A stretch of 64,000 nt of DNA from contig JBAZMP010000003.1 of assembly GCA_041649715.1 (NCBI GenBank), positions 100,894-164,893 on the forward strand, read 5' to 3'. A program made the position numbers and the translations under genes. The stretch comes from Patescibacteria group bacterium. GTDB lineage: Bacteria > Patescibacteriota > Patescibacteriia > JAXHNJ01. Under the pieces are notes generated by a model. The model was not told the DNA's origin, searched no databases, and saw nothing but the letters and a program-made list of their open reading frames with translations. Below are positions 5,788 to 58,848 of this stretch, piece after piece (the stretch's first letter is position 1; each line of letters opens with the position of its first letter).

Positions 5788-5938
5788 TGAACATCACCTC
5801 CCTTAAAGAAACAGTAAAAAAACTACACTATCTTTCTACTCAAGCAAGTGTGTAACTTATCACACATTGCACTTTTTGTCAAGTAGAAACAAAAAAGCCC
5901 TTATTTTGGAAAAGGACTTTTTTGCATTATTTTCGCTT

Positions 5939-19864: not shown

Positions 19865-20011
19865 GGGGAGTTAAAATCAAAAATAAAACCTTTTCATTTT
19901 CAACCCCCAAATACGAAAAGGAGTGTAAATTTGGGGAAAAAGTCGTGTTGTTTGACAACCGAATACACTGTTTATCTTATCCCGACACCTCAAGAAAGGA
20001 GTAGGGAGAAT

Positions 20012-20302: not shown

Positions 20303-20356
20303 AAGCATCGAGCATGTAGAACATGAGCATGTAGCACTCAGAAAGGATCGGCTACA

Positions 20357-21067
20357 ATGGCCAAGAAATCAATAAGGGGTTTGTTTGTCAAGACTGACGG
20401 ACAAGCTCCCAGACCCGGGTCCCCTTCCGGAAGTGCTTGGGCTCCGCCGGCTGGAACAGGTTTTGTCCCCGGCTCAGCTCCCAAGTCATATCTGGATACC
20501 GGCCCCCGGCGCGGTCAATCAAGCGGGAACGCGACCGCGGTAACTTCTACCGCCGTCGACACGCAGTTTACGGCCGAGATCGAGGAACAGCTCCGGACCG
20601 TGCCGACTCCCAAGGGTTTCGACATGTTCCTGGGCGCCCTCGAAAACTTGACCCAGTTCATCCCCGACGAAGGAAACCGCTTCAAGGCGGCGATGGTAAC
20701 GGCGGCCGCCAGCGGGCTGACGCCGGCACAAATCGTCGAGGCCCTGGAAGCGCAGCTGGCAGCCCTGGAAAAAATCCTGGCGACCTTCCAGAGCGATCTG
20801 GAAACGGAAGCCAACGAGTCGATCGCCGAACGCGAGTCGCAGCTAAAAACGCTGGCGACCCAGATCGGCGACCTCCAGCGGCAGCTGGCCGACATACAGA
20901 GAGAAATGCAGAAACTCTCTGACGATCAGAGAAGACTACAGGATGAAAACGCCCAGGTCGAGCAGCGTAAAAGCTTGGTAACCAACCGTTACTCAAGCGC
21001 GCACGCGGCCAAACTGGGCAAAACCCAAGAGCTGCTTTCAAAGGTACAGCGGTACCTCGGGCAGTAG
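20357..21067 (+). CDS. Hypothetical protein: Pro/Gly/Ser-rich disordered N-terminus plus helical/coiled-coil C-terminal half
   Basis: 236 aa. RBS 'aggatcgg' upstream. The C-terminal half has heptad-like text (LEAQLAALEKILATFQSDLE..LQRQLADIQREMQKLSDDQRRLQDENAQVEQ). Confidence 0.55.
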   Translation: MAKKSIRGLFVKTDGQAPRPGSPSGSAWAPPAGTGFVPGSAPKSYLDTGPRRGQSSGNATAVTSTAVDTQFTAEIEEQLRTVPTPKGFDMFLGALENLTQFIPDEGNRFKAAMVTAAASGLTPAQIVEALEAQLAALEKILATFQSDLETEANESIAERESQLKTLATQIGDLQRQLADIQREMQKLSDDQRRLQDENAQVEQRKSLVTNRYSSAHAAKLGKTQELLSKVQRYLGQ

Positions 21068-21081
21068 GAAAGAGGAACGAA

Positions 21082-22185: not shown

Positions 22186-22238
22186 TAAGTCTCTCATTTT
22201 CCCAATTCTCAACCAGAAAAGTCAGTAAAGGAGTAGTC

Positions 22239-23717: not shown

Positions 23718-23814
23718 GGCCACGGCCTGAAAGATAGTTTGGTATCATACCGCCAAAGGGGCGGGAGTCAACTGATTCCCGCCCCTCTCATCAACCTCCT
23801 GGGAAGGAGAACGA

Positions 23815-24612
23815 ATGCATAACAATGGAGACCTGTTTTGCCTCCGAGGCAAACTGCCGCCGAAAACTCGAATGGTAATCGAGCTCGCCGGCCTGGTCAT
23901 CATTCTCCTTGTCTGGTGGGCGGTCGTCGCGACTGGTCTGGTCAAGCCGAAAATGCTGCCTTCACCGATTTCCGTCGTTACCTGCTTCGGTGAACTGGTG
24001 AAGCAAAATCACTTGGTCGGAAACCTGCTCTTCTCGTTGATGCTCAACATCCTGGGGTATATTGAGGCCATCCTGATCGCTGTACCGCTTGGTTTTCTGA
24101 TCGGCCTCCAGCCTATCCCGCGAGCCCTGAGTGAAAGATACATCACCGCCGGACGGTTCCTGCCGCTTTCGGCCGTGGTCGGTCTGTTCATTATGTGGTT
24201 CGGGATGTACACCAACATGAAAGTGCAGTTTCTGAGCTTAGGCATCGTTGTCTATCTCCTGCCGATGGTCATCCAGAGAGTCGACGAGGTCGATCAGATC
24301 TATTTCGACACCGTCAAGACTCTGGGCGCCAGCAAATGGCAGGCCGTGACGAGCGTTTTTATCCCGGGTGCGCTCTCCAAGATCTCTGACGACATCCGGG
24401 TCATCGTCGCCATAAGTTGGACCTATATCATCATCGCTGAGGTGGTGAACAGGACCCAAGGCGGCATCGGAGCGCTGTGTTACGGCGTCAGTCGCGCTAG
24501 CCGTCCGGACAAAGTATTCGCCATTTTGGCTATAATCATCCTGATCGGGATCGTCCAGGACAAATTCTTTCTTTTCCTGGACAAGAAACTCCTCAAGCAC
24601 AAGTACGTCTGA
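23815..24612 (+). CDS. ABC transporter permease (NitT/TauT family, SsuC/TauC-like)
   Basis: Six TM helices. Region resembling the EAA loop (..LGASKWQAVTSVFIPGALSKISDDIRV..). RBS 'ggaaggag' upstream. Confidence 0.7.
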   Translation: MHNNGDLFCLRGKLPPKTRMVIELAGLVIILLVWWAVVATGLVKPKMLPSPISVVTCFGELVKQNHLVGNLLFSLMLNILGYIEAILIAVPLGFLIGLQPIPRALSERYITAGRFLPLSAVVGLFIMWFGMYTNMKVQFLSLGIVVYLLPMVIQRVDEVDQIYFDTVKTLGASKWQAVTSVFIPGALSKISDDIRVIVAISWTYIIIAEVVNRTQGGIGALCYGVSRASRPDKVFAILAIIILIGIVQDKFFLFLDKKLLKHKYV

Positions 24613-24630
24613 ACAAAGGAGGTTTGAAAG

Positions 24631-25446
24631 ATGCCGACGCTACTCCCAGTCGTCTTCGAAAATACAAACCTCCCGGACGTCATCGAGCTGCGCAACATTT
24701 GCCAGACGTACGACGGAGGAAAGGCTTGGGTCTTACAGTATGTCAACCTCCTGATCGAGGACATCCCCGACCAGGGACAGTTCGTGGTCATACTCGGACC
24801 CTCAGGCTGCGGCAAATCAACGCTTCTGAAATATATTGCCGGCCTGCAAAAACCGACCAGTGGGGAAGTGCTGATCAGCGGAAAGGTCCGTACCGATGAC
24901 GTCGTCGTCGGCATGGTCTTCCAGCAGTACTCCTCCCTGCCCTGGTTCACGGTACTTGAGAACGTCATGCTGGGGCTAAGGTTTCAGAACGTGCCGGAGA
25001 AGGAAGCCCGGGAAAAAGCGATGCAAATGCTCGAAGTCGTCGGACTGGCCTGCGAGGCGAACAAATTCGCCAAAAGCACCCAGCTTTCCGGCGGCCAGAT
25101 GCAGCGCGTCGCCATCGCCCGCAGCTTGATCTCCAACCCCGGCATTATCCTGATGGACGAGCCGTTCGGCGCCCTGGACATCAACACCAGGCACCAGATG
25201 CAGCTCCTCCTCTGCGATATCTGGGAAAAGCTGCAGTCAACCATCATCTTCGTCACCCATGATATCAACGAAGCCGTGTTCCTGGCTGACGATATCTATG
25301 TGATGACGAAGAACCCCGGTTACATCTGCAAGCACTGGATAATTGACCTGCCCAAGCATCGTGACCGGTCAACCAAGCGTGACCCGCGGTTCATCGAACT
25401 CGCCAACGAGATCGATGATTACATGCAGAACTTACGCATCAAATAG
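24631..25446 (+). CDS. ABC transporter ATP-binding protein (NitT/TauT family)
   Basis: Walker A GPSGCGKST, signature LSGGQMQRVAIARSL, Walker B ILMDEPFGALD, H-loop VTHD. Confidence 0.85.
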   Translation: MPTLLPVVFENTNLPDVIELRNICQTYDGGKAWVLQYVNLLIEDIPDQGQFVVILGPSGCGKSTLLKYIAGLQKPTSGEVLISGKVRTDDVVVGMVFQQYSSLPWFTVLENVMLGLRFQNVPEKEAREKAMQMLEVVGLACEANKFAKSTQLSGGQMQRVAIARSLISNPGIILMDEPFGALDINTRHQMQLLLCDIWEKLQSTIIFVTHDINEAVFLADDIYVMTKNPGYICKHWIIDLPKHRDRSTKRDPRFIELANEIDDYMQNLRIK

Positions 25447-25468
25447 CTCATTTTTCATTCGCACATAA

Positions 25469-25500
25469 GGCTGACCCCTCAAAAGGTCAGCCTTTTTCTT
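25469..25500 (+). terminator. Rho-independent terminator after the ABC ATPase gene
   Basis: Stem ggctgacc/ggtcagcc followed by 'tttttctttt'. Confidence 0.6.
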
Positions 25501-25521
25501 TTGCCCAAATTCCTAAAATCC

Positions 25522-25550
25522 TTGACAAATAAATAATTTCGTGCTAATAT
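25522..25550 (+). promoter_or_regulatory. Strong sigma-70-like promoter TTGACA-17-TGcTAATAT for the AAA+ ATPase gene
   Basis: 'cttgacaaat'..'gtgctaatatg'. Same architecture as 19836-19864 and 33648-33676. Confidence 0.5.
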
Positions 25551-25623
25551 GTTGGGTTAATTTGCACCTTGTAATTTTGATATTTTTCACAGAGGCATTG
25601 AAAAAAAGAAAGGCAGGCACAGA

Positions 25624-27480
25624 GTGAAAGATGGTATAAAAAAGCAGCCGTTATCGCACGGAGAAGACGATTTTGAAAGCAGCGGTATTCCCGGTCTCGA
25701 CGACGCGGTCAAATCACTGGATAACATTCCCAAAATCCTGGGCCGCAGACGAGAAATGACGCGGAAAACGGAAGGTCATCTTCGCAAAGAAATGGCCGAA
25801 ACCGGCGAAACAGAGGAAAATCCTCTTCAGCCGGCCCTGGTTCGCGCCATGATCACCGCGGGCAAGCTCGCCCGTCATCTCGAGTCACAGCGGGAAAAAC
25901 CCGGCTATTACGGCGTGGTTTTTTCCCGACTGGCAGCAATGACCGATCCGGAAAAGTTCGATTACGGCAAGATTCAGCCGGGCACCAAGGTCAAAATCCT
26001 CACCAACGAAAACCAGCCGGAATTAATGGGGCAAGTGGGCTACACAGCCAACGAACCCGATTCGGACGGTCTTGTCATGGTGCTTTTCGATGAAGGCGAA
26101 TTCGGCCATTTCCTGGCTGTGCCGCCGGACGAAAAGCAACCGAGGGAGATCGAAATTGTCCCCGGCCAAGACCGAGTCATCGTCCTTTTCGAAGGACGCT
26201 TCATCGAGCTGGCTTCTCCGGAAGGAATGACCCTTTCCAGCGGCCAGGTGGTCAAGCTGGATCTGAAAACCAACCAGATCCTGGATATCGTCAGCCTAGA
26301 ACTGCCGGGCGAGATCGCCACGGTAAAATGTATCTTGGGCGGCCGCGTCCAAATCGACTTCCACGGTACCGATAAAATCGTGGCGGCCGGCGACCTGACC
26401 AAGACCTTAGAGCCCGGCAATCAGGTGATCTTAGACTCAACCAACCAGCTGATCACTGGCAACCTCGGCGACATGGATGTTTCCTACCGCTACAACCGCC
26501 CGCCGGCCATCACCTGGGATGATATCGGCGGACAGACCGCAGCCAAAGCCATACTCCAAGAGATGATTGAGGCGCGCTTCGATCATCCGGCCGCTTTTGA
26601 AAGGTTTCACAAGAAACCCCCCAAGGGCCTGCTTCTGCTCGGCCCCACCGGCTGCGGCAAGACGATGTTGGCCGAAGCCATGGCCTATTCGCTTTCGAAG
26701 CGCTTCGGTGAAACCGCCATGCGTTCCGGCTTTTTCCTGGTCAAGGGACCGGAGATTCTGCGCTCGCTCGTCGGCGAACAGGAAGCTATCATGCGCCACA
26801 TCTTCGTCCTGGCAGACAAGCACTTCGCCAAATTCGGCTTCCCCGCCATCATCTTCATCGATGAATGCGAAGGCATCTTGAAAAAGCGGGGCACGGGCAC
26901 CAGCGGCGACTACTTCGAAACGCTGGTGCAAACCTTCTTGGCCCTGATGAACGACACCAAGGCCATCGTCGTACTGGCGACAAATAGGCCGGATATGCTC
27001 GACCCGGCGGTGGTCCGCCACAAGCGCATCGACCGCAAGATTCCGGTTCGTCGTCCGGATCGGCCGGCCTCCGAGGAAATCTTCAGAATCTATCTGAAAG
27101 ATCTCCCTCTCTCCGAGGGCTTGACCGGCGAGACACTGGCCAAACTGGTGACAACCGAGCTTTTCTCGGACTGCTACGGCATGTACAAACTCATTGTCCA
27201 GACCGAAAACGGAACAGAAGAGAAAATCTTTGGCCTAGCGCAGGTCATCAACGGCGCCATGATCGCCGGGATAGTAGATGAGGCCACCTCGGCCGCCGTC
27301 AACCGGCAGATCAAAGACGGTAAGGAAACCAGTCTGACCGCAGATGACCTAAAAGAAGCCCTGAGCAGAGTCTATCAGGGCGAACTCCTGACCGATCACA
27401 CCGAAGACCAGAAAGAATTCGGGGAAAACCTGACCGGCAAGGTCCTGGAAGCCCACAAGCTCTTTGTGGGCCGCAAATAG
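25624..27480 (+). CDS. ARC/Mpa-family (proteasome-associated-ATPase-like) AAA+ unfoldase; no C-terminal GQYL-type proteasome-docking tail
   Basis: Predicted GTG start. N-terminal short helix, then a beta-rich inter-domain region, then an AAA module: ITWDDIGG, Walker A LLLGPTGCGKT, Walker B IIFIDECEG. ARC/Mpa-like stretches (FFLVKGPEILRSLVGEQE.., KKRGTGTSGDYFETLVQTFL, ATNRPDMLDPAVVRHKRIDRKIPVRRPD) are matched against the ARC/Mpa family from memory. The protein ends ..LFVGRK. Confidence 0.75.
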   Translation: MKDGIKKQPLSHGEDDFESSGIPGLDDAVKSLDNIPKILGRRREMTRKTEGHLRKEMAETGETEENPLQPALVRAMITAGKLARHLESQREKPGYYGVVFSRLAAMTDPEKFDYGKIQPGTKVKILTNENQPELMGQVGYTANEPDSDGLVMVLFDEGEFGHFLAVPPDEKQPREIEIVPGQDRVIVLFEGRFIELASPEGMTLSSGQVVKLDLKTNQILDIVSLELPGEIATVKCILGGRVQIDFHGTDKIVAAGDLTKTLEPGNQVILDSTNQLITGNLGDMDVSYRYNRPPAITWDDIGGQTAAKAILQEMIEARFDHPAAFERFHKKPPKGLLLLGPTGCGKTMLAEAMAYSLSKRFGETAMRSGFFLVKGPEILRSLVGEQEAIMRHIFVLADKHFAKFGFPAIIFIDECEGILKKRGTGTSGDYFETLVQTFLALMNDTKAIVVLATNRPDMLDPAVVRHKRIDRKIPVRRPDRPASEEIFRIYLKDLPLSEGLTGETLAKLVTTELFSDCYGMYKLIVQTENGTEEKIFGLAQVINGAMIAGIVDEATSAAVNRQIKDGKETSLTADDLKEALSRVYQGELLTDHTEDQKEFGENLTGKVLEAHKLFVGRK

Positions 27481-27503
27481 CCTTTGAACCTTATAACAAC
27501 ATT

Positions 27504-27537
27504 ACACTCCGGGAGAAATCTCGGAGTGTTTTTTTAT
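27504..27537 (+). terminator. Rho-independent terminator after the AAA+ ATPase gene (downstream boundary of the GC-rich island)
   Basis: acactccg-(10 nt)-cggagtgt followed by 'ttttttt'. Confidence 0.6.
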
Positions 27538-27550
27538 ATTGCAATATTTT

Positions 27551-28249
27551 TTAATATGTTGGCGCTATGGGTAAAACATAGTCATCTTCATGTATCAGAT
27601 GCATGTTTTCAGTAATATAGGAATAATCAGAATCTTCATATTTTACATCAATTAAAAATCGACATAAATAATATCCAAATAAAACCTCGTCATTGCCCAT
27701 TGACTCGCAGTTGGCAATCTTAACTCCTTTTCTATCGTAATAATTAATACCGCCATCAAGGCAACCGATATAGGGAAACATACTAAATGGAGCATCGCAT
27801 ATTTCCGCATATATCCGGCCGTATCTTTTAGTATTCCAGGAAACGATTGGCCAATTGTCATAGTGCTCTCTATTAATGATGTTATTAATAACTGTCATAT
27901 CTACCCTGTCATTTTCGGGATTCTTTAAGGGTTTTTGGGTGAAAAGAAAAGGCGTGCCATATAATATTAAAATCGAAATAATTATAAGTATAAGGGCTGA
28001 TAAAACATTCTTTCTATTAATTAGTGAGATAAGACAGGCAAAAATATATAATGCGATTGCATAGATGCTATAAAATAAAAATAATATGTCAACGGTAATG
28101 CTAGATTCAAGATATTGAAATAGCGAAACGTATATATTTACCTCAAAAAAATCAAAAAAGAATAAATACTCAATAACGGTGACAACGATTAATCCCAAAA
28201 GGATTAATATCTTCTTTTTGGTCGGTTTTAAGTGTTTTAAAAATCGCAT
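27551..28249 (-). CDS. Hypothetical membrane protein in a very AT-rich segment
   Basis: 232 aa. Three N-terminal TM helices and a Cys-containing extracytoplasmic domain. The segment is noticeably more A+T-rich than its neighbours. Confidence 0.45.
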   Translation of the reverse strand: MRFLKHLKPTKKKILILLGLIVVTVIEYLFFFDFFEVNIYVSLFQYLESSITVDILFLFYSIYAIALYIFACLISLINRKNVLSALILIIISILILYGTPFLFTQKPLKNPENDRVDMTVINNIINREHYDNWPIVSWNTKRYGRIYAEICDAPFSMFPYIGCLDGGINYYDRKGVKIANCESMGNDEVLFGYYLCRFLIDVKYEDSDYSYITENMHLIHEDDYVLPIAPTY

Positions 28250-28268: not shown

Positions 28269-29399
28269 CTACCACTCCCATTCGCGTCCTTCCGGTATGA
28301 CCTCAACCCAGGTCTGACCGCGGTTGAACTCTATTTCCTGTCCGCTAGAATCATAAAAAATAGTGCGGTCGGTCCGCTCCGGTTTTTTCCAGGTGCCTTC
28401 GACCGCAAGGCCATCCCGCAAGACAAAAGCCTTACCCTCACCATGAGTACTTAAACCAAGCCTGCCCTTTTCGCCCAGATACTCCTCCGGCGGGACAATT
28501 TGAACGATAATATTCTTAGCCTTCAATTCCTGCTTATTATTGGCATCCACTTGCACTTGATCCGCGTTATATCTTAAATATAAATTTTCCTCTTTGATGT
28601 ATTTCCACTCCACTTCGTAGGTATAAGAGGAAAATTTAACTTTATAAAACTTTTGGTCTTCGCCCCTATCAGCCAGAACCGCATCGTCTTTAAAAAGCCA
28701 CATCCTCGTGGTTGATTGCTTTTCTAAAAGTCCCTTGTCGCGCAAGGCATAAACGAGCTTCTCCCCGGAAGTGAAAAGATTGTGCGGGGCAAAGAGGGTG
28801 TGGTCCCGCCAAAAATAGACCGCGTCCCTGGATAGGGCATTTAAATCATTGGTGTCATAATCGCGGATATTGCCTAAGGCGGCCGGCGAACCGCCGGCGT
28901 GAGCGTACAAAGCGGCGTATTCATAAGCCCAGTCCAAATAATAGGGGCGGGCCGATCTTACCGGACCAATAACGGGGGCGGTTGAACCGCCGGTAAATAA
29001 AACCAGGAAACGAGTCGCGCCGCCTTCCGCTAAAGTTTCGTAAATAATCGATGCCTGGCTAAGGCCGGCTTGCGGCCGCACGGACAGCAGATTCTCAATC
29101 ATCACTCCGACCGGCCATAGATTGGCGGCCGCCGCGTCCTTTACTTTCTGGCCGTCAAACCGACGGTAATATTCCTCCGGCTTAAGGACAACAGTCATCG
29201 GAGGGGTATCGTTTTTAACCTTGTCATGCGCCAAAACCGGCAAGATATCGAAACCATTTAAAAATATTGAAAGGCTGAAGAACACCCCGGCAAAAACAAA
29301 CAAACCGACCACTATGAAAAGACGAGCCTTCAAATCAAAAAGAGGGCTGACTTTTTTCTTTGTTAAAATCTTATTGTTCTTTTTGTTTTTGTTTTTCAT
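28269..29399 (-). CDS. DUF3048 domain protein (YerB-like), membrane-anchored
   Basis: N-terminal TM, then ..ENLLSVRPQAGLSQASIIYETLAEGGATRFLVLF.. typical of DUF3048. Paralogous to the next gene. Confidence 0.65.
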   Translation of the reverse strand: MKNKNKKNNKILTKKKVSPLFDLKARLFIVVGLFVFAGVFFSLSIFLNGFDILPVLAHDKVKNDTPPMTVVLKPEEYYRRFDGQKVKDAAAANLWPVGVMIENLLSVRPQAGLSQASIIYETLAEGGATRFLVLFTGGSTAPVIGPVRSARPYYLDWAYEYAALYAHAGGSPAALGNIRDYDTNDLNALSRDAVYFWRDHTLFAPHNLFTSGEKLVYALRDKGLLEKQSTTRMWLFKDDAVLADRGEDQKFYKVKFSSYTYEVEWKYIKEENLYLRYNADQVQVDANNKQELKAKNIIVQIVPPEEYLGEKGRLGLSTHGEGKAFVLRDGLAVEGTWKKPERTDRTIFYDSSGQEIEFNRGQTWVEVIPEGREWEW

Positions 29400-29416
29400 T
29401 TTTTTGTAACGTGAAA

Positions 29417-30499
29417 CTAGTTATAAGTAACGGTCCGGTCATCCGGCACCACTTGAATCCAAGTCTGTCCCGCGTTGAATTCTATCTCTTTGCCCGTCTC
29501 GTCGTAGAACAGGGTCCTTTGGTTCCGACCTTCCTTTTTCCAGGTGGCGGCTGTCGCCTTCCCGTCCTGAAAAATGACCGCCTGCCCTTCGCCGATCGTT
29601 ACCATAGAAAGCCGGCCTTCCTCGATGACCGAGGTCTTGACATACTGAACCACGACATTTTTGGCGGCCATCTGTTCGTTTTTTTGATTGACGAACGGCT
29701 CGCCGCCCTGCGCCCTCAAATAGACGTTTTTCTCCCGGTCATATGTATATTCCACCTTATAGGAGAAACTGGAATAATCGATAGCGATGTTCCTTTGTTC
29801 GGTCGGCCGACTGCCCAGGGCCGCCTCTTCCTTAAATTGGTAGCCCTCATAGTTACCTTCCGCGGGCGCTTTTTTATCCCGTAGAGCAAAGATCAAAAGA
29901 TCGCTGGAAGTGAAAACATTGTGGGGCGCCGCAATTTTTTTGTCTCGCCAGAAATAACGGCTGTCATAGAACTGGTCTAGATTAAACACGTCGTAAGTTG
30001 AAATCAAAGACATAGCCAGGGGGCTGCCGCCGACATGACCATAAAGAGCGTTATATTCCTTCACCCAGTCTAAAAAGTACGGCCGGGCCGAGCGGACGGG
30101 ACCGATTTTGGCTATCGATGAAGTTAAATTATAAACGGCCATAAAACGGGTAATCCCCCCTTCGGCTAAAGCCTCGTAGACCAGATTCGCGTTCTCCAAA
30201 CCCGCTTGGGGCCTGACCGTCACCAAATTTTCAATCATTACGGCCACGGGGTATAATTGGCGGTTTTCCCTCACATCATAAACTCCGTCAATCACCCGCC
30301 TGACCTGGTCTTCTTTATTGTTGACAATTGAGCCGTTAGAATTGTCTTTTCCCTGGCGGCCGAAAATAAAATACCCGAGCAGACTGACGGCTACGAGCAA
30401 AGCACCGGTAATACTAATAAGCAGCCATTTCTTGCTTTTTTTGACCGTCGCCAGATATTTTTCTTTTTCTCCTTCAATTTTTATCTTTGTCTCACCCAT
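29417..30499 (-). CDS. DUF3048 domain protein (paralogue), membrane-anchored
   Basis: ..ENLVTVRPQAGLENANLVYEALAEGGITRFMAVY... Start set at MGETKIK. The K/R-rich upstream extension in the ORF track is the rplY 3' end read in another frame. Confidence 0.6.
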   Translation of the reverse strand: MGETKIKIEGEKEKYLATVKKSKKWLLISITGALLVAVSLLGYFIFGRQGKDNSNGSIVNNKEDQVRRVIDGVYDVRENRQLYPVAVMIENLVTVRPQAGLENANLVYEALAEGGITRFMAVYNLTSSIAKIGPVRSARPYFLDWVKEYNALYGHVGGSPLAMSLISTYDVFNLDQFYDSRYFWRDKKIAAPHNVFTSSDLLIFALRDKKAPAEGNYEGYQFKEEAALGSRPTEQRNIAIDYSSFSYKVEYTYDREKNVYLRAQGGEPFVNQKNEQMAAKNVVVQYVKTSVIEEGRLSMVTIGEGQAVIFQDGKATAATWKKEGRNQRTLFYDETGKEIEFNAGQTWIQVVPDDRTVTYN

Positions 30500-31199
30500 T
30501 TTTTTCTTCCTTAGTTTTTGGCGCCGCCGGCTCATTCTTTTTTTCCTCGCCTTCTTCCTCTTCCTTCTTCTCTTTTTCGACCTTCTCCACTTCTTCAACT
30601 TTTTCTTCCGGTTTTTCCTCCAGGGCTTTTAATTCTTCTTCGCTTCTGGGTGGTATGACTTTGGCCACCGCTTCCCCGCTCTGGTCCAAAACTTCGATAT
30701 TGGCCGGGATTTTTAAATCGCGGACGTAGATAATATCTTCAAAAGTCTTAAGACGGCTCAAATCCACTTCTATCTCATGAACCAGGTCGGCCGGCAAACA
30801 AGTGATCTTAAGACGGTCTAAACTTTTGACCAAAACGCCGGACAAACCCTTAACGGCTGGCGATTCGCCGACAAAATTCAAAGCGACTTCCGTGGTAATC
30901 TTTTCGGTCATTTTTACCTGGTGAAAATCCGCATGTATCATCTGGTCACTCTTGGAGTCAAATTGGATCGCCTGGATCAGCACCTTTATCGGCTTTTTTT
31001 CGGCGATAATCAGATCTACTAGGCTTGATTCTCCGGCTTTGGCAAAAACTTTTTTTAGATCAAAATAGTTGACGGCTAAAGAAAGCGGCTTAGTATCATG
31101 GCCGTAAACCACGGCCGGCACCATATTTTCTTTTCGCAATTTATTATTTTGTTTGCCCTTTGCTTCGCGGATTTTCGCTTTTAGCGTTATAGTTTCCAT
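30492..31199 (-). CDS. rplY: 50S ribosomal protein L25 (general stress protein Ctc form, acidic/lysine-rich C-terminal tail)
   Basis: METITLKAKIREAKGKQNNKLRKENMVPAVVYGH.. matches the L25/Ctc N-domain. Low-complexity EK-rich tail. Confidence 0.8.
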   Translation of the reverse strand: METITLKAKIREAKGKQNNKLRKENMVPAVVYGHDTKPLSLAVNYFDLKKVFAKAGESSLVDLIIAEKKPIKVLIQAIQFDSKSDQMIHADFHQVKMTEKITTEVALNFVGESPAVKGLSGVLVKSLDRLKITCLPADLVHEIEVDLSRLKTFEDIIYVRDLKIPANIEVLDQSGEAVAKVIPPRSEEELKALEEKPEEKVEEVEKVEKEKKEEEEGEEKKNEPAAPKTKEEKNG

Positions 31200-48390: not shown

Positions 48391-49047
48391 TTATAATAAT
48401 TTTTTTATGGCCTGCCAGACTTTTTGGTGGATAATCTGCGGGGCAAGAAATTTTCCTTTTTCCAGGCAGGGAATCATTTGCCAATTTTTATATTTCTTAA
48501 CTAAAACCTGGCATTGTTTATAGGCGAGTTTTTGGTGATTAAAATCAACTTCATGTATATCGCGCTTGCCCCTCGCTATCATCAACTTTCTGGTTACGTT
48601 TGGCGGAACATCAAGAAATAAAGTTAGGTCTGGCCTAGGTATACCCAACACCCTAAATTCTAGCTCATCCAGCCAGGCATAAAATTTTTCCTTTTTAACC
48701 TTACCCTTAATTTTTATGGCCTGATGGATTTTATTGGCGGGAGAATAACGATCAGAAACAATAATCTTACCTTCTTTGAGTGCTCGCCACATTTTTTCTT
48801 TGGCTTCAAACCGATCTAGGGCATAAAGCAGTGAAATCAGATGGGGATCAGTTTGCTTGGTTTGACCGAAATCCCCTTTTAAATAACGCCTGACCATCCG
48901 GCCGAAAAATGATTTTTCATATTGAGGAAAATCAGTCAGATAGGTCTTCCGGCCGGCCCTTCTTAAATGAGATAATAATAATTTTATTTGGGTGGATTTA
49001 CCCGAACCATCAATGCCATCGATAACTATTAATTTCCCTTTTTTCAT
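48391..49047 (-). CDS. tmk: Thymidylate kinase
   Basis: P-loop IVIDGIDGSGKSTQ and a DRY-like motif (VSDRYSPANKIHQAI). Confidence 0.8.
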   Translation of the reverse strand: MKKGKLIVIDGIDGSGKSTQIKLLLSHLRRAGRKTYLTDFPQYEKSFFGRMVRRYLKGDFGQTKQTDPHLISLLYALDRFEAKEKMWRALKEGKIIVSDRYSPANKIHQAIKIKGKVKKEKFYAWLDELEFRVLGIPRPDLTLFLDVPPNVTRKLMIARGKRDIHEVDFNHQKLAYKQCQVLVKKYKNWQMIPCLEKGKFLAPQIIHQKVWQAIKKLL

Positions 49048-49129: not shown

Positions 49130-49576
49130 TCACTTCTTTTTCTTTTTTCCGCCCTCCTGGTCGGTTTTACCAATCCGACGCGAAACCTTGGCGCGTTCCA
49201 GGGGAAATCTGATCATCCGGGATCGCTTGGCTAAAGCCTGTAGCATCGCCTGCCGGATATACCAGACAGCATAGGAGATAAACTTGTAACCCCTGGTTTC
49301 GTCGAAGCGATGAGCGGCCTTAATGAGACCGACGTTCCCCTCATTGACCAGATCTGCCAAAGACAGTCCTTGATTGACATATTCCTTGGCCAAAGAAACC
49401 ACATAGCGCAGATTCGCCCGGACAAGCTGGTGCAGCGCTTTTTCGTCGCCTTTTCTGAACCTTTTCATCAGCTCTCTTTCCTGCTCCCGGGTCAGAAGAG
49501 GAATTTTATCGATTTCATCAAGATAACGATCAAGACTTACAGCCCCTTCTTCTTTGCCGTCATCATCAGAAAACAT
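49130..49576 (-). CDS. Truncated sigma-70 paralogue (regions 1.2-3.0 only; lacks region 4)
   Basis: Start set at [11 protein letters not shown] with RBS 'aaaggagtgg'. Contains ..[55 protein letters not shown].. and then ends in ..[13 protein letters not shown] with no helix-turn-helix for the -35 element. Confidence 0.55.
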
Positions 49577-49729
49577 AACCGCCACTCCTTTGCTAAAAGA
49601 TTCTATTATTTGAATAGTTAAAGAACTTCCTTCTAACTTAGGCTTAGTCCAAAAAGAGCAAAATGTCAAGAGATAGAAAAAAGCCCGTGGCGGTCAAAGA
49701 CCGACGGGCTTTTGTGAGTATCCCCTCCA

Positions 49730-50611
49730 TTAGCTCTCGACATGCCCCCTTAAATAGCGGGCGCGACTTTCATGACGAAGGCGCAATATGGCCTTCTCCT
49801 TGATTTGTCTGACCCGTTCGCGGGTCAACTTAAGCTCAGTGCCGATTTCCTCCAACGTGCAAGGCTTATCGTCTTCCAGACCGAAGTAACGAACAATAAT
49901 GAACCGTTCGCGCCGAGTCAGAGTATCAAGCGCCTTCTGCATGTCTTCGCTCAAAGCGGCCACATATACCTGTTCATCTGGCGGCTCCGCTTTGGGATCA
50001 GGGAGAGACTCGCCAAGAGTATCCTCGTTTTCGTAACCGATAGACGCATCAAGAGAAAGGTGACTGTTTGTTATCTGCATGGTGTCGCGGACTTCATCGG
50101 CCGGCAACTTCAGCTTTTTCGCAATTTCCTCCGCGCTAGGAGAACGCCCAAGCTCTTGATCGAGGTTTTGGGCTGCTTTGCCGATCCGATAGAGCGTACC
50201 CGCTCGATTCAAAGGCAGTCTGACGATACGTGATTGCTCGGCCAGCGCCTGGAGCATCGCTTGCCTTATCCACCAGACAGCATAGGAAATGAACTTGTAG
50301 CCGCGTTTCTCGTCGAAACGGTAAGCCGCCTTTATTATACCGAGGTTTCCCTCGTTAACAAGATCGGCCAACGGCAGACCCTGGTTGACGTACTGTTTCG
50401 CCACCAAGACGACGAATCGCAGATTGGCTTTCACTAAATCGTGAAGGGCCTCCTCATCTCCTTTCCGTATCCTTCGGGCTAAATCCTTCTCCTGCTCCCG
50501 CGTCAGGAGAGGAGTTTCGTTGATCTCTTTAAGATAGATGCTCAGGCTTTCTTCGGCCTGATGGCCAGGATTTACTTCCTGGTAATCTTCCCGGTCGTCT
50601 TCCGAGATCAT
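49730..50611 (-). CDS. RNA polymerase sigma-70 family factor (RpoD-like, regions 1.2-4)
   Basis: Start at MISEDDRED with RBS 'gggggagaaat'. Region 2 [34 protein letters not shown]. Region 4 ..LEEIGTELKLTRERVRQIKEKAILRLRH. Confidence 0.8.
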   Translation of the reverse strand: MISEDDREDYQEVNPGHQAEESLSIYLKEINETPLLTREQEKDLARRIRKGDEEALHDLVKANLRFVVLVAKQYVNQGLPLADLVNEGNLGIIKAAYRFDEKRGYKFISYAVWWIRQAMLQALAEQSRIVRLPLNRAGTLYRIGKAAQNLDQELGRSPSAEEIAKKLKLPADEVRDTMQITNSHLSLDASIGYENEDTLGESLPDPKAEPPDEQVYVAALSEDMQKALDTLTRRERFIIVRYFGLEDDKPCTLEEIGTELKLTRERVRQIKEKAILRLRHESRARYLRGHVES

Positions 50612-50750
50612 ATTTCTCCCCCCTTTCAACGGGGAAAAAGTGGGGTTTTTAAGGAATTCAAGGGACAAAGGTACCTTCTTTTATCAGCATAGCGCGAATA
50701 AAAAAGGTGTCAAATTGGTTATCGACCCAGGGCGTTATGTAAAATTTATA

Positions 50751-52130
50751 CTATTTCCTGAGCTTGATATATTTGACCAAAATGGGATGCTTCTCCCGAA
50801 CAAGCTGGTACATACGTTTAGCGATTTCACGGATGGAGAAATGGGCGGCTGGCGACGTTCTCAGCTTCACAAAATGATACAATTCACGCAAATTCAAGTT
50901 AATGAGGATACGCCGGCGGTAAGCGTTTAAGACCAGATACCTGGACTCTTCCGGAAATTTGGCCGCAATCTTTGGGTAGACTTCTTCTACTTTATTAGTC
51001 GAGGCTAAAAAAATCTGTTTTAATTCCGCGTTTTCCTCGATTACCGGAGGGGTCTGATAGCCGTTTTCTATGGTCAGATCCTGCACCGTCTGGGTGCACA
51101 TGCGGTGACGTTTAAACTCATAATACGCCCCCTCGTCCATGACGCAATCAAAAATATAATAGACGTGCTCCAATTCCTTCAAAGGTATGTCGTAATCACC
51201 ATACTTTTTTAAGGCTTCATCGATCACCTCTTCCTTTTCCTCCTTGGTCATATTTGAAACCCGGCTTCTCACCTCCACGAAAGACTGGTGGCAATAACGA
51301 TAAAGCAAAGCGCTGACGAGGATATCTTCGGCATTATCACGATATTCTACCAGCATGACGTTGGTCTGATCGTTGCTCTTGGTGGAAAAATACTTCTGGG
51401 CTAATTCAGCCAAACCCAAAGCCGTCTCTCTTAAATAAATATTGGGTTGAGCGTATTTTACCAAAGTCGGCAGATTCTTTTGGCTGACCTTTTTGATTTC
51501 CTGGCCCAAATCCTGCACTTCGGCCAAGGGGTGCGAAAGCATCTTGGTGATGGCATATTCAAGAACCCTCGCATTCATGGTCACTCCGATATTGGCCAGT
51601 GAAGCGACGGGTAAAATATAGCGAGCGGAATCCAGAGCCTGAGGTTTAAGTCTCGCCTCGTATTTGGCCGGCTCTTCGTCCATTTTTTTCGGTATCTTAT
51701 TTTTCAAATACTCTAGAATTTTCACGTAAAAATTCAAATAATTTTTCATCAGAAACTTCAGGGTTTCCAGATACAGCCCCTCAAATTCTGTTTTTTCCAT
51801 GTTGGGCGGAAAATAAAAATCATCTTCAGCAAAGACCTGATAACGGGAGGATTTCTCGGTATAGGAAGCGAGGCGGTTGCCCTCCAAGACTTCAGTGGCC
51901 AACCGAGAGATATTTTCCACCGCCAAATTAAGCACGGCGTGCTCGGCCACCGAGGAGTGCCCGTAACCGACGACCCATTTTTCATTGAACTCGGCCGATT
52001 TTTCTTCGGTCAGTTCGTCGGCAATCTCGGCAAAATTCTTGTCGGTGCGCGAACATTTGGCAAAAGTCACCGCTTTTACCTCCGGCGGCAGATCCTTAAG
52101 TAGATAGACCCTTCTTTTGTTCTCTGGCAT
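50751..52130 (-). CDS. thyX: Thy1/ThyX-family FAD-dependent thymidylate synthase, unusually long (459 aa)
   Basis: N-terminal ..HSSVAEHAVLNLAVENISRLATEVLEGNRLASYTEKSSRY.. (ThyX-like motif block with RHR replaced), an internal ..EFKRHRMCTQ.. and a C-terminal ..LNAYRRRILINLNLRELYHFVKLR..AHFSIREIA.. (NAR/AQ-EI-like block). ThyX motifs and the typical ThyX length of about 220-250 aa are recalled from the family. Confidence 0.55.
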   Translation of the reverse strand: MPENKRRVYLLKDLPPEVKAVTFAKCSRTDKNFAEIADELTEEKSAEFNEKWVVGYGHSSVAEHAVLNLAVENISRLATEVLEGNRLASYTEKSSRYQVFAEDDFYFPPNMEKTEFEGLYLETLKFLMKNYLNFYVKILEYLKNKIPKKMDEEPAKYEARLKPQALDSARYILPVASLANIGVTMNARVLEYAITKMLSHPLAEVQDLGQEIKKVSQKNLPTLVKYAQPNIYLRETALGLAELAQKYFSTKSNDQTNVMLVEYRDNAEDILVSALLYRYCHQSFVEVRSRVSNMTKEEKEEVIDEALKKYGDYDIPLKELEHVYYIFDCVMDEGAYYEFKRHRMCTQTVQDLTIENGYQTPPVIEENAELKQIFLASTNKVEEVYPKIAAKFPEESRYLVLNAYRRRILINLNLRELYHFVKLRTSPAAHFSIREIAKRMYQLVREKHPILVKYIKLRK

Positions 52131-52134: not shown

Positions 52135-52554
52135 TTACCTTCCCGTGCTCCCGTGCCGGCCGCAGCCTCTGCGGGTCGCAGAAATTTTACGCACTTCTTT
52201 TATTCTAGCAGAAAAGACCGGCTGGATTAAGACCTGGGCAATCCGGTCCCCTTTTTTAATAGAAAAACTGCCCTTTGATATATTCTGCAGAGTAACTGAA
52301 TATTCGCCGCGGTAGCCGGAATCGTAGACACCGCCCAATGATTTGATACCCTTTGCCCCCAGCCCCCCTCTGTCCCAGATCAAAGCAACCGTGCCTTTCG
52401 GAATTTCCATTTTAAAACCCAGATAAAAGATGTGACGCTCGCCGGGCTTTAAAACCTTATTCTCTCGAGAATACAGATCCAGGCCGGCGTCGCCGGGATG
52501 GGCATAAAAAGGCAATCTTACCTCTTTCTTTAATTTCTTTATTTTAAGCAGCAT
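52135..52554 (-). CDS. dut: dUTP diphosphatase
   Basis: ..AHPGDAGLDLYS..GRSGLG..GVYDSGYRGE.. matches trimeric dUTPase motifs. Confidence 0.75.
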   Translation of the reverse strand: MLLKIKKLKKEVRLPFYAHPGDAGLDLYSRENKVLKPGERHIFYLGFKMEIPKGTVALIWDRGGLGAKGIKSLGGVYDSGYRGEYSVTLQNISKGSFSIKKGDRIAQVLIQPVFSARIKEVRKISATRRGCGRHGSTGR

Positions 52555-53134
52555 TTATTTTCTTGTAAATTTTTTTGACCTCCTTTGATAATTCCCCCAG
52601 ACTGCCTTCGTTTATTATCGTGTAATCCGCCATCGCAATCGGCCCCCCTTTTTCCAAGTTTTCAATCTCCGCTTGGTCGCGCGACTCGGCCTCCACCCGG
52701 GGAAAGGAACGGTATTTCATTTTTTCGTCCTGGCCATGACGGCTCGCCCTCTCTTCCAGCCGGGCATAGCGGGTTTGAGGCGAGGCATATACCGCCACGA
52801 TCACCAAATCCTTACCGTACTTTTCCTTTAAGACCTTGTATTCTGACCAGCCATAGAGACCATCGCCAATGACATTACCCCTTATTAAGCCGGCATCGAA
52901 TTTTGCTAAGTTTAATATGGCAAAGGCCGCCATGCCGTATTTCTGCCGAAAAGCTTCCCGGATCGGCCGTTCGTTGGCTTCGGTCGGCGCCAGCCCCCTC
53001 CTTTTGACCTCGTCCAAGGTAATCTGACCGAAACGGATATACTGGTAACCCTGCTGCACAAAAAAATCCCCCACTTCGCTTTTGCCACTACCGGGCATGC
53101 CCACCAGACAGACCAGTTTATTGCCCATAAGCAA
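52544..53134 (-). CDS. P-loop nucleoside/nucleotide kinase (dNMP-kinase-like)
   Basis: Walker A VGMPGSGKSEVG. The context is a thymidylate-metabolism operon. Specificity unknown. Confidence 0.5.
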   Translation of the reverse strand: MLMGNKLVCLVGMPGSGKSEVGDFFVQQGYQYIRFGQITLDEVKRRGLAPTEANERPIREAFRQKYGMAAFAILNLAKFDAGLIRGNVIGDGLYGWSEYKVLKEKYGKDLVIVAVYASPQTRYARLEERASRHGQDEKMKYRSFPRVEAESRDQAEIENLEKGGPIAMADYTIINEGSLGELSKEVKKIYKKINAA

Positions 53135-53139: not shown

Positions 53140-53673
53140 TTATTTTTCTTCCTTTATAACAACTTCGCCTTCGGAGGCTCTCATCTCTTCAATCTCACCC
53201 GCAAAAAGAGACTGAACGATCTTATTCCATTCCGGATTCTCTTGGTATATATCTACTTGGATGCCGGCCTCCCTTAAATATTTCACCGCTTTTTCGTTGC
53301 GGTAGACCTTGCCTACGACCACTCTTTTAATGCCGGCCGCGACGACGTATTTGGCGCAGTGAATACAAGGGCTATATTTCGTATACATGGTGGAACCTTC
53401 GGTGCTCGCCCCAGGGATAATTGCTACTTGCAGGATCACATTGTGTTCGCCGTGGATCGTCCTCACACAATGGCCTTCCTCCATCATATGCCCCCCATCG
53501 TTACAGTGGGGCAAGCCCGGCGGAGAACCATTATAGCCCGTGGATATTATCCGTTTGTTCAAAACAAGGACGGCGCCGGACTGCAAACGGTCGCAGGTCG
53601 AACGTGTGGAGATTATTTTTGCCACCGCCATAAAATAATCGTCCCAGGATGGGCGGAAATTTCTTTTTGGCAT
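53140..53673 (-). CDS. dCMP deaminase (ComEB-like zinc deaminase)
   Basis: Zinc-binding HGEHNVI ... PCIHCAKYV motifs (H(A/C)E / PCxxC). Confidence 0.75.
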   Translation of the reverse strand: MPKRNFRPSWDDYFMAVAKIISTRSTCDRLQSGAVLVLNKRIISTGYNGSPPGLPHCNDGGHMMEEGHCVRTIHGEHNVILQVAIIPGASTEGSTMYTKYSPCIHCAKYVVAAGIKRVVVGKVYRNEKAVKYLREAGIQVDIYQENPEWNKIVQSLFAGEIEEMRASEGEVVIKEEK

Positions 53674-54940: not shown

Positions 54941-55486
54941 CTAAATCTTCTTGACTTGCAAGAAGTCCAGCTCCACCGGCGTTTCGCGGCCGAACATGGA
55001 GACCAGCACCTTGATCTTGCCTCTCGCCTCGTCAATCTCCGACACCTTGCCCTCAAATTCTTTGAAAGGCCCGTCGGTGATCTTGACCGGCGTACCGACC
55101 GTGACGTCAATTTTGAATTTCGGCTCTTCCACGCCCATCCGGCGCTGCAGCTCTTTCACTTCCTGATCAGAAATAGGCGTCGGCGTGGTGCCGGAACCGA
55201 CAAAACCCGTAACATTGGGGGTGTTACGGACAACATACCAGGAATCATCCGTCACGATCATTTCCACTAGCACATAACCGGGAAATATCTTTTCCACCAC
55301 CGTCCGGCGCTTGCCGTTTTTTATCTTGATTTTTTTCTCCGTCGGTATCAAAACACTGAATATTTTGTCTTCCATATCCATGGATTCTATCCTTTGTTTC
55401 AAGTTACGTGAAACGTTTTCTTCATAGCCGGAGTAAGTATGCAGGACATACCATCTTTTACCCTGTTGTAAGGTTTGTTTGGGCAT
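54941..55486 (-). CDS. nusG: Transcription termination/antitermination factor NusG
   Basis: NGN domain (RWYVLHTYSGYEENV) and a C-terminal KOW (..GTPVKITDGPFKEFEGKVSEIDEARGKIKV..). Confidence 0.85.
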   Translation of the reverse strand: MPKQTLQQGKRWYVLHTYSGYEENVSRNLKQRIESMDMEDKIFSVLIPTEKKIKIKNGKRRTVVEKIFPGYVLVEMIVTDDSWYVVRNTPNVTGFVGSGTTPTPISDQEVKELQRRMGVEEPKFKIDVTVGTPVKITDGPFKEFEGKVSEIDEARGKIKVLVSMFGRETPVELDFLQVKKI

Positions 55487-55490: not shown

Positions 55491-55745
55491 TTAGGAAATA
55501 ATACGGGTTAAACCAAAACTTAATAAATAATCGACCAAACCCAAAAAAAGAGCCACGCCCACGCTTACGCCGATGACGATTAGGGTATTTTTGATCGTCT
55601 GCTTCCGCGTCGGCCAGTTGACCTTTTTTAACTCTTCTTTTGACTCTTTAAAGTAAGAAATGAGCCGATTGGCCATATTATTGCTGGTTCTTAAAACCCC
55701 GTCGCCGGGGTCTTTATCATCTGTGGATATTATAACAAACCCCAA
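55491..55745 (-). CDS. secE: Preprotein translocase subunit SecE
   Basis: ..ELKKVNWPTRKQTIKNTLIVIGVSVGVALFLGLVDYLL.. Single C-terminal TM helix. Sits upstream of nusG as in the canonical cluster. Confidence 0.8.
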   Translation of the reverse strand: MGFVIISTDDKDPGDGVLRTSNNMANRLISYFKESKEELKKVNWPTRKQTIKNTLIVIGVSVGVALFLGLVDYLLSFGLTRIIS

Positions 55746-55767: not shown

Positions 55768-56322
55768 TCACCAAGCTGTTTTCCTTATCCCAATGGCTTT
55801 AGCGGTTATATTGCTTGCGATATGAAGTAATGCGCCTAAAATGATGGAGAAAAGTAAGATAGCCAGTGGTGGGATATAAATAATGAAGCCAAAGATCATC
55901 CCTCCTAACGTGAAATCAATCTGGTCAAAGGGAAACCAGGACTTGCCAGGCGGCAGATTTCGCCTTCTCTTGAAAAAACTTTTGACCAGATCGCCGACCA
56001 TCGCGCCAAAACCCTCAAGCGCCCCTAACAAAAGCGGTGTTTCTTCATAATCGATCAGGGAAAGTGAACGGAAAAAATCCGAATTTATGTATGCGTATCT
56101 TTGGATGACAAAAATAAGCGTACCGCCCAACACGGCGACAACCAGACCCCTTAGGGTCTTATTCGGGCCAAAGATCGGCTGACCGGCCACAGTCCGCCCA
56201 CCGTCTATGGGGACGGCAAGCCACTTAAACCATCTTCTGAAAATGACCGGCAGCATATTGGCGATACCAATCGGCAGAAAATACCAAACGGTTCTTAAGA
56301 CAAAAATAATAATGGCCTCCAT
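55768..56322 (-). CDS. CDP-archaeol synthase-like (CarS/DUF46) CTP-transferase-family membrane protein
   Basis: 184 aa, 5 TM helices. Motif block GDLVKSFFKRRRNLPPGKSWFPFDQIDF resembles CarS rather than bacterial CdsA (no PGHGG..DR.D). Confidence 0.5.
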   Translation of the reverse strand: MEAIIIFVLRTVWYFLPIGIANMLPVIFRRWFKWLAVPIDGGRTVAGQPIFGPNKTLRGLVVAVLGGTLIFVIQRYAYINSDFFRSLSLIDYEETPLLLGALEGFGAMVGDLVKSFFKRRRNLPPGKSWFPFDQIDFTLGGMIFGFIIYIPPLAILLFSIILGALLHIASNITAKAIGIRKTAW

Positions 56323-56326
56323 GAAT

Positions 56327-56782
56327 TTAACGGGAAATAAAATAATAAAAAGAGTAGTAAGCGATCAGATAAAGGAACAACAAATGCCGCAAGGGCAAAA
56401 TAAAACTAAATTTTTTGAATTTGAAGCTGGCGGCCGTCAAAAAAAGATTAACCAGAAACAAATAGAACCAGGGGTGAAAAAAATGAATAAATATTACGCC
56501 TTCCGACAAGCGGTCGGTTGTCACATCGACGAGCCAGCCTTCCTCGCTGGCCGTCTGGTATTTTTTGGCTACCAAACCATCCATCCAGTCGAGGATCAAC
56601 ACAAAAACCAGAACAAAAAATGACAACAACTTGTATCTGTCCCATAAAAGAATGAAAATCAGACTGAAAGGGAGGGCCAGATACGAGATATAATTTGGAT
56701 TGACTTTGGGCCAAGGCAACCGCAAAAGCCAAAGATCAATCACGTCCCTGGCTTTTTGGATTATGCCAATTTTCGGCGGCAT
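56327..56782 (-). CDS. CDP-alcohol phosphatidyltransferase family protein
   Basis: D..DG..AR/K...G..D...D pattern (LDWMDGLVAKK..SEEGWLVDVTTDRLSE) and multiple TM helices. Confidence 0.65.
   Translation of the reverse strand: MPPKIGIIQKARDVIDLWLLRLPWPKVNPNYISYLALPFSLIFILLWDRYKLLSFFVLVFVLILDWMDGLVAKKYQTASEEGWLVDVTTDRLSEGVIFIHFFHPWFYLFLVNLFLTAASFKFKKFSFILPLRHLLFLYLIAYYSFYYFISR

Positions 56783-56793: not shown

Positions 56794-58848
<2,055 letters not shown>

Follow-up and report, generated by a model that had tools for sequence, protein, structure and literature searches.

How do the Patescibacteria, for which lipid synthesis of their own is impossible, equip lipids with head groups, and what part might an enzyme of an archaeal family play in this process? 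The question is raised by two small adjacent genes in a 64,000-nucleotide (nt) stretch of contig JBAZMP010000003.1 from a Patescibacteria group bacterium (assembly GCA_041649715.1); this whole stretch is hereafter called the window, and its positions are used throughout unless contig positions are specified. Both genes lie on the minus strand. The first gene of the pair, at 56327-56782, encodes a 151-aa CDP-alcohol phosphatidyltransferase (CDP-AP; family PF01066), the proposed head-group transferase, and the second, at 55768-56322, encodes a 184-aa protein of family PF01864, predicted to be a CTP:lipid-phosphate cytidylyltransferase of the CDP-archaeol synthase (CarS) family. A preliminary description had located both open reading frames (ORFs) beside secE-nusG and pointed to the block GDLVKSFFKRRRNLPPGKSWFPFDQIDF in the 184-aa protein, and all of this was confirmed at the exact coordinates. 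It had also placed the CDP-AP gene immediately after the CarS-like one: the two are indeed adjacent and follow each other in this way in plus-strand coordinates, whereas in the direction of transcription the CDP-AP gene comes first. We believe, with a probability of roughly two in three, that the pair forms a co-transcribed two-gene module for head-group salvage, in which the CarS-type enzyme would act on host-derived phosphatidic acid.

Family assignment of the 184-aa protein

By profile, modelled fold and conserved residues, the 184-aa protein is a member of the CarS-like family of Pfam. It matches PF01864 with E=5.9e-26 (92 bits against a gathering cut-off of 22), and the alignment runs over the full length, placing residues 6-184 of the protein on positions 3-175 of the 175 in the profile. 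The match to CTP_transf_1 (PF01148), the profile of CdsA, amounts to 25.2 bits and is confined to profile positions 164-227 of 264, a region that corresponds to the shared C-terminal catalytic core only. Such an outcome of the hidden Markov model comparison, together with the fold described below, upholds the earlier view of this protein as CarS/DUF46-like rather than CdsA-like. Its sole match in NCBIfam was the CarS model NF003114 (122.1 bits), and no CdsA model of that collection matched it at E<=1.

Structural comparisons point in the same direction. A sequence search of the PDB with the 184-aa protein gave a single match, 5GUF, which is the CarS of Aeropyrum pernix (E=3e-11, residues 8-184). 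The AlphaFold (AF2) model, calculated from 31 homologues, has five long helices and a predicted local distance difference test (pLDDT) score of 94.4; when it was compared with the PDB using Foldseek, 5guf was again the only significant match (template modelling (TM) scores 0.70/0.81, root-mean-square deviation 3.0), and no CdsA structures were found among the matches. We also examined residue conservation in an alignment of 16 named canonical archaeal CarS and 83 relatives of the 184-aa protein. All 17 of the listed family-conserved residues (P17, N22, P38, D40, G52, K55, T56, G59, G110, D111, K118, R119, G126, D133, Q134, D136 and H167) are present in it, with the block GDLVKSFFKRRRNLPPGKSWFPFDQIDF covering residues 110-137. 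The identity of a canonical CdsA, which we considered for this protein as well, is ruled out by the profile scores and the fold.

Thus, the 184-aa protein resembles the known CarS enzymes (PF01864; NF003114; 5GUF from Aeropyrum pernix; characterised in Archaeoglobus fulgidus) in its length class, in the predicted five-long-helix fold, in its full-length profile match, and in the G-D...K-R and D-Q-x-D core along with other family-conserved residues. With CdsA it shares the CTP-transferase superfamily and, as we propose, the same job, i.e., activation of a lipid phosphate ahead of head-group transfer, but it is ~100 residues shorter than the CdsA profile.

A divergent CarS subfamily in Patescibacteria and DPANN archaea

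Sequence comparisons further indicate that the 184-aa protein is part of a divergent CarS subfamily common to Patescibacteria, i.e., the Candidate Phyla Radiation (CPR), and DPANN archaea. When one genome from each GTDB species was scanned with the motifs W[FIV]PFDQ[IL]D and DL[VI]KSFFK, at least 441 loci were obtained, each from a species representative. Among the best 80 of these at least 441 loci, Patescibacteria (Kerfeldbacteria, Falkowbacteria, Peribacteria, Parcubacteria, Saccharimonadia, Levyibacteria and Microgenomates) are mixed with DPANN archaea (Woesearchaeota, Nanoarchaeota and Pacearchaeota). Instead of the G[RK]PxPLLDQLDF of canonical CarS, the subfamily carries GxSW[FIV]PFDQ[IL]D, and it has a conserved loop insertion at ~residues 80-97, which several canonical CarS lack. 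On average, the identity that the 184-aa protein shows is 43% with other sequences from Patescibacteria, 42% with those of the DPANN type and 30% with canonical CarS. The scores against NF003114 are graded as well, with 193-206 bits for canonical CarS, 144-151 for DPANN-type proteins and 114-153 for Patescibacterial ones, the lowest of all sampled proteins (114-122 bits) belonging to the clade of the 184-aa protein.

A phylogeny, which had been suggested at the outset as a check, was reconstructed by neighbour-joining with bootstrap, and it gave a clear answer at two levels. Canonical CarS and the CPR/DPANN group were split in 97% of bootstrap replicates, while the 184-aa protein and three other Patescibacterial sequences formed a clade with 100% bootstrap. 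Deeper nodes of the tree lack resolution, and bacterial and archaeal sequences interleave there; for this reason, we refrain from stating how many transfers took place between the domains or in which direction they went.

Some labels in this sample deserve a comment. The GenBank labels of L008 ('Pirellulales'), L027 ('Bdellovibrionales') and L041 ('Aminicenantes') look unreliable to us: gene order around CarS in these contigs is of the Patescibacterial or DPANN type, and they have probably been mis-binned. Labels of the binchicken/third-party annotation (TPA) co-assemblies ('uncultured Gammaproteobacteria', 'uncultured Methanosarcinales') were treated as placeholders and used for domain assignment only. 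L017, a relative located on the 886-kb chromosome record OZ246416.1 and labelled Gammaproteobacteria in GenBank, was regarded as Patescibacterial.

A short CDP-alcohol phosphatidyltransferase

The preliminary description had named a CDP-alcohol phosphatidyltransferase as the partner of the CarS-like protein, and here the profile and the signature agree. PF01066 (CDP-OH_P_transf) recognises the 151-aa protein with E=1.8e-10 (41.9 bits against a gathering cut-off of 22), although the alignment covers only positions 3-91 of the 152 in the profile, i.e., the N-terminal two thirds. Neither this match nor that of the 184-aa protein to PF01864 is due to chance. The CDP-AP signature reads D65xxD68G69xxA72K73x8G82xxxD86xxxD90, and its four aspartates are invariant in 12 homologues. 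The 20 best PDB matches found by Foldseek were all CDP-APs (probability 0.95-1.00, TM-scores 0.42-0.53). With the solved members of the family, namely PIP synthase (6H53/5D92), PgsA (7DRJ), PssA (7POW) and AF2299 (4O6M), the protein shares the signature DxxDGxxA(R/K)x8GxxxDxxxD on helices two and three, and the N-terminal helix of its model would correspond to their amphipathic one. It differs from them in size, having 151 aa against ~180-220 aa. None of the models specific for a head group in the NCBIfam scan, i.e., PgsA, PssA, phosphatidylinositol- or archaetidylinositol-phosphate synthase (PIPS/AIPS) and ClsA, was reached by the 151-aa protein; the best was archaetidylinositol-phosphate synthase, with 43 bits against a cut-off of 180, and the others gave <=28 bits.

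Could such a short protein simply be a truncated one? A word-index search gave only 12 relatives, and the subfamily became visible when 1.84 billion representatives were searched exhaustively with a profile. This second search revealed 120 representatives at E<=1e-10, nearly all of them 130-160 aa long and aligned end to end. Since these 120 relatives are of about the same length and match from end to end, the short CDP-AP is a real subfamily and no truncation. In four cluster representatives (P0305, P0314, P0318 and P0346), a membrane hydrolase domain of the YdjM family (PF04307) precedes a fused CDP-AP of the short type.

Pairing of the two genes within a housekeeping cluster

In the direction of transcription, the genes follow each other as pheS, pheT, gyrB, CDP-AP, CarS-like gene, secE, nusG, rplK and rplA, after which comes a cluster for dTTP synthesis. 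Upstream of the pair lies gyrB (56794-58836, minus strand; Pfam HATPase_c, DNA_gyraseB, Toprim and DNA_gyraseB_C), and downstream lie secE (55491-55745, minus strand; PF00584, 74.7 bits) and nusG (54941-55486, minus strand; PF02357). The start of secE may be more internal, as the Logan call of the same gene has 61 aa. Spacers are short throughout, with 11 nt between gyrB and the CDP-AP gene, 4 nt within the pair and 22 nt between the CarS-like gene and secE. Consensus scans for promoters and terminators around the pair gave counts not above those in shuffled sequence; it is thus from gene packing that we infer co-transcription of the pair.

To see how widely the pairing is kept, we took a sample of 74 related loci in which a CarS gene could be called (34 bacterial and 40 archaeal). 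A CDP-AP gene lies <=4.5 kb from CarS in 45 of the 74 (14/34 bacterial and 31/40 archaeal), its usual place being directly upstream. The closest parallels are L005 and L085, whose CarS-like proteins are 54-64% identical to the one described here and which keep the order of gyrB, short CDP-AP and CarS; secE-nusG come directly after CarS in L005 and after one extra gene in L085. More generally, the order gyrB-CarS-secE-nusG is found in L005-L007, L010, L013, L019, L027, L032 and L085. Seven Patescibacterial species other than those of L005 and L085 have gyrB-CarS-secE without the transferase. These seven species imply that the place of CarS in the housekeeping cluster is older or more stable than its pairing with the CDP-AP.

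The two proteins also occur as one. Full-length fusions of a short CDP-AP and a CarS-like protein, in the same order as the genes, are represented by P0280 (336 aa) and P0292 (330 aa), which are independent cluster representatives; a third one, P0006, is truncated at the N-terminus. Overall, with adjacency conserved in both domains and with such natural fusions, the functional coupling of the CarS-like protein and the CDP-AP is well supported, and with it the earlier proposal that the two would act as a unit for CDP-activation and head-group transfer.

In other lineages the partner is a different CDP-AP: a PgsA-like protein, an AIPS/PIPS-like protein accompanied by a PHP-family phosphoesterase, or, in DPANN archaea, a PssA beside phosphatidylserine decarboxylase. 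The AIPS/PIPS-like CDP-AP followed by the phosphoesterase was found in six bacterial and six archaeal loci, and the set of these two and a CarS-like gene occurs, for example, in Saccharimonadia (L047, L054, L069, L077 and L083) and in DPANN archaea (L057, L059 and L081). As the partner CDP-APs differ by lineage, the CarS-like family would consistently represent an activating step that precedes varied head-group enzymes. The PHP-family phosphoesterase next to CarS is a candidate for dephosphorylating a phospholipid-phosphate product.

Lipid genes and lipids of Patescibacteria

Which lipid would such a pair work on? We surveyed the families recorded at contig positions 92.4-167.2 kb, that is, over 75 kb comprising the window (except for one gene at its far end, which is not on record) and up to ~10 kb beyond it. 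In these 75 kb, no family was recorded for geranylgeranylglyceryl phosphate synthase (GGGPS), UbiA-type digeranylgeranylglyceryl phosphate synthase (DGGGPS) or glycerol-1-phosphate (G1P) dehydrogenase, none for PlsC, PlsY, CdsA or GpsA, and none for any further enzyme of the lipid core. Ether-lipid core families were likewise missing from the 25 most frequent among 133 further neighbours of the Patescibacterial homologues.

In published lipidomics of a CPR-dominated fraction of <0.2 um, 72 intact polar lipids were detected, all of them acylglycerols and many of them lysolipids; in the authors' conclusion, the lipids of CPR cells are based on fatty acids and come from neighbours, and complete lipid pathways are missing from CPR genomes (PMC7242380). 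A salvage model via CDP-diacylglycerol has been proposed from a Saccharibacterium genome (PMC6031116). According to a perspective of 2024, the mechanisms of lipid uptake and processing in Patescibacteria have not been identified (PMC11665869). The preliminary description had connected the gene pair with the lipid divide. This connection holds for the archaeal type of the enzyme; archaeal-type lipids find no support, with neither GGGPS nor DGGGPS nor G1P dehydrogenase recorded in the 75 kb and with acylglycerols only in the CPR fraction (PMC7242380). Thus, what relates the pair to the lipid divide is where its enzyme comes from and not the chemistry of the membrane.

Acyl-lipid genes do accompany CarS elsewhere. 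In the loci of one Patescibacterial clade, with seven species representatives, the gene order is H+-pyrophosphatase, PlsC-like acyltransferase (one copy or two), AMP-binding, i.e., acyl-activating, enzyme, patatin-like phospholipase (present in three of the seven), CarS and trigger factor; among these loci are L012, L048, L053, L072, L080 and L008 (~positions 170-7900 of each). This arrangement is a conserved candidate lipid-salvage cluster in that clade. In the Woesearchaeota loci L058 and L073, a PlsC-like acyltransferase (184 aa) is encoded two genes upstream of CarS, so that a bacterial-type acyl-lipid enzyme neighbours an archaeal head-group gene.

Proposed mechanism and its alternatives

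Family membership, fold, conserved residues, operon-like packing, conserved pairing and fusions are the observed basis of the salvage module that we propose. The catalytic activities we infer are two. In step 1, the 184-aa membrane enzyme of the CarS family would move CMP from CTP onto a glycerolipid phosphate, yielding a CDP-lipid and pyrophosphate; in step 2, the 151-aa CDP-AP would swap CMP for an alcohol head group, for which we lean weakly to the inositol-phosphate or glycerol-phosphate type. Since synthesis of the lipid core seems to be missing from the organism, phosphatidic acid from lipids of a host or neighbour, either a diacyl lipid or a re-acylated lysolipid, would be the most likely substrate. 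With no ether-lipid core genes visible in the 75 kb surveyed, the substrate is probably not digeranylgeranylglyceryl phosphate (DGGGP), in contrast to canonical CarS. On such an acyl substrate, the CarS-type enzyme would take the role that CdsA has in ordinary bacteria. Head-group-only sets are known from other symbionts, i.e., DPANN archaea, Panguiarchaeum (PMC12411855) and the Saccharibacteria model (PMC6031116), which keep the CDP-activation and head-group steps without lipid core synthesis; in the DPANN-type loci, CarS comes with a CDP-AP in the 31 of 40 cases counted above. What differs here is that the activating enzyme of an archaeal family resides in a bacterium and is fixed in the gyrB-secE-nusG-rplKA housekeeping cluster.

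Several points weigh against this reading. The NF003114 score of the 184-aa protein lies under the equivalog cut-off of 148, so its exact activity is not assured. The CarS of A. fulgidus strongly prefers DGGGP to phosphatidic acid, and an E. coli cdsA mutant was not complemented (review PMC9385802); given this preference of characterised CarS, the use of acyl phosphatidic acid would presuppose a changed specificity. The acyl-lipid gene context described above is that of a different Patescibacterial clade and not of the present genome, and no acyltransferase or lipase was recorded in the window and its flanks. On the side of the CDP-AP, the signature has K73 in place of the arginine usual in the family (K in 11 of 12 homologues), and the AF2 model is of moderate confidence (pLDDT 77.8, with 62-70 over most of the C-terminal third), showing an N-terminal helix and about five membrane helices against six in the family.

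How probable is it, then, that the lipids are archaeal after all? In the strictest version, genuine archaeal chemistry, the enzyme would activate self-made DGGGP (unsaturated archaetidic acid) for ether isoprenoid or mixed membranes. Membership in the CarS family, whose characterised members are DGGGP-selective (PMC9385802), speaks for this, as do the pairs of GGGPS/DGGGPS homologues reported from bacteria of the FCB group and from a single genome of the Parcubacteria (PMC7852524); the lack of any family recorded for GGGPS, UbiA-type DGGGPS or G1P dehydrogenase over the 75 kb of contig and of ether-lipid core families among the most frequent Patescibacterial neighbours, with CPR genomes devoid of complete lipid pathways and a CPR-dominated fraction containing acylglycerols only (PMC7242380), makes it very unlikely in our opinion. 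It is also conceivable that a bacterium living on an archaeon takes up lipids of the archaetidic acid type, to which CarS and the CDP-AP give new head groups, DPANN archaea presumably doing likewise. The nearly equal likeness of the 184-aa protein to DPANN and Patescibacterial sequences, which interleave in the tree, would fit such a life; a genome-reduced Asgard lineage retains CarS, PgsA and PssA without the mevalonate pathway (PMC12411855), and a preprint describes a Parcubacterium as living ectosymbiotically on methanogenic archaea (10.1101/2022.04.20.488981). We nevertheless regard salvage from an archaeal host as unlikely, for bacterial lipids are favoured both by the acyl-lipid genes near CarS in Patescibacteria and by a lipidome consisting of acylglycerols only (PMC7242380).

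Other explanations dispense with phospholipids or with function altogether. The pair might serve a polyprenyl phosphate or another lipid carrier, for instance as a CTP-dependent kinase similar to the dolichol or phytol kinases of this superfamily, or by making a CDP-linked precursor of an envelope polymer. Indeed, the CTP-transferase superfamily includes CTP-dependent polyprenol kinases, the CDP-AP matches no head-group-specific model, and the 184-aa protein falls under the CarS equivalog cut-off. Such a role seems quite unlikely to us, considering that both the end-to-end profile alignment and the retained residues are typical of CarS proper and that the recurrent partners are enzymes of phospholipids, namely PssA with phosphatidylserine decarboxylase, PgsA-like and PIPS-like CDP-APs, and PlsC-like acyltransferases; moreover, natural fusion of a CarS-like protein to a CDP-AP implies a CDP-alcohol as the product. 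As for the idea that an archaeal gene pair was acquired horizontally and that what is left of it is decaying or has no function, the equivalog scores of this clade, the lowest sampled, and the unusual shortness of the CDP-AP could be seen in that light. Both ORFs are intact, however, the catalytic-core residues are all invariant in relatives down to 38-55% identity, the place in the housekeeping operon is conserved across the clade, and 120 diverse proteins of equal length represent the short CDP-AP type, so we find this explanation hardly credible.

Returning to salvage of host-derived phosphatidic acid, it is tempting to extend it from one genome to the whole subfamily, although we are rather inclined to doubt than to assert what follows. 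A CarS subfamily restricted to ultra-small symbionts, namely Patescibacteria and DPANN archaea, may have spread between the domains, lost its selectivity for the lipid tail, and come to replace CdsA as the central activating enzyme for host-derived ester-linked acyl phospholipids in Patescibacteria. The CarS clusters, with their CDP-AP, PHP phosphoesterase, PlsC-like protein, acyl-activating enzyme and patatin lipase, might then constitute the lipid-salvage machinery of Patescibacteria.

Other features of the window

The gene content of the window is compatible with a Patescibacterium of reduced genome. The dTTP-synthesis genes form a compact cluster of dCMP deaminase (53140-53673), an AAA_18-type kinase (52544-53134), dut (52135-52554), thyX and tmk (48391-49047). 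Herein, thyX (50751-52130, minus strand) encodes 459 aa with two separate Thy1 (PF02511) stretches, i.e., a tandem-duplicated ThyX. At 49130-50668 on the minus strand there are tandem sigma-70 genes, one for a complete protein of 312 aa (regions 1.2 to 4) and one for 179 aa with regions 1.2 and 2 only; L085 has two full-length sigma-70 copies at the equivalent place. Two adjoining genes for paralogous DUF3048 proteins (376 and ~372-393 aa) occupy 28269-30598 on the minus strand.

Raised G+C content (0.51-0.57 versus ~0.45) marks positions 20000-28000 and 6000-8000, which may be acquired islands. The former contains two ORFs (236 and 367 aa) without significant family match, an ABC permease, an ABC ATPase, a 618-aa AAA protein and a substrate-binding protein with NMT1/phosphonate-binding and OmpA domains; the latter contains a 1004-aa NHL/FG-GAP repeat protein. 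Near the beginning of the window, a sortase gene (1518-2150, minus strand) adjoins those for a 916-aa CLIPPER/SpaA-like surface protein and a dockerin-domain protein, in a region that extends past the window start. This group could be a machinery for cell-surface attachment.

Significance

The gene pair itself is no new discovery. Both identical proteins are already public on a 235-kb metagenomic contig; their NCBI entries read 'MAG: CDP-archaeol synthase [Patescibacteria group bacterium]' for the one and 'MAG: CDP-alcohol phosphatidyltransferase family protein' for the other. Such pairs are routinely annotated in genomes of this kind, and the subfamily is widespread. In our literature search, which did not cover several key reviews, we found no paper discussing CarS in CPR/Patescibacteria, and CarS goes unmentioned in an outgroup-free rooting study on lipid genes. 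Within the limits of that search, and with no priority claimed, the CPR/DPANN subfamily, its placement in gyrB-secE-nusG, the fusions of the miniature CDP-AP and the acyl-lipid clusters may be unrecorded so far.

For the head-group part of Patescibacterial lipid salvage, the locus offers concrete, cloneable candidates in the CarS-type enzyme and the proteins that accompany it. If the enzyme accepts acyl phosphatidic acid, the isoprenoid specificity of CarS would not be universal, and an enzyme of an archaeal family would operate on bacterial lipids; such a result would bear both on how strict the lipid divide is at the level of enzymes and on gene exchange between CPR and DPANN. Should the subfamily indeed replace CdsA, an archaeal-type enzyme would run a core step of bacterial membrane biogenesis. 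If, conversely, only DGGGP is accepted, it would follow that lipids of the archaeal kind are handled by some Patescibacteria, a more surprising outcome. Either way, two small genes make the processing of lipids by lipid-auxotrophic ultra-small bacteria directly testable.

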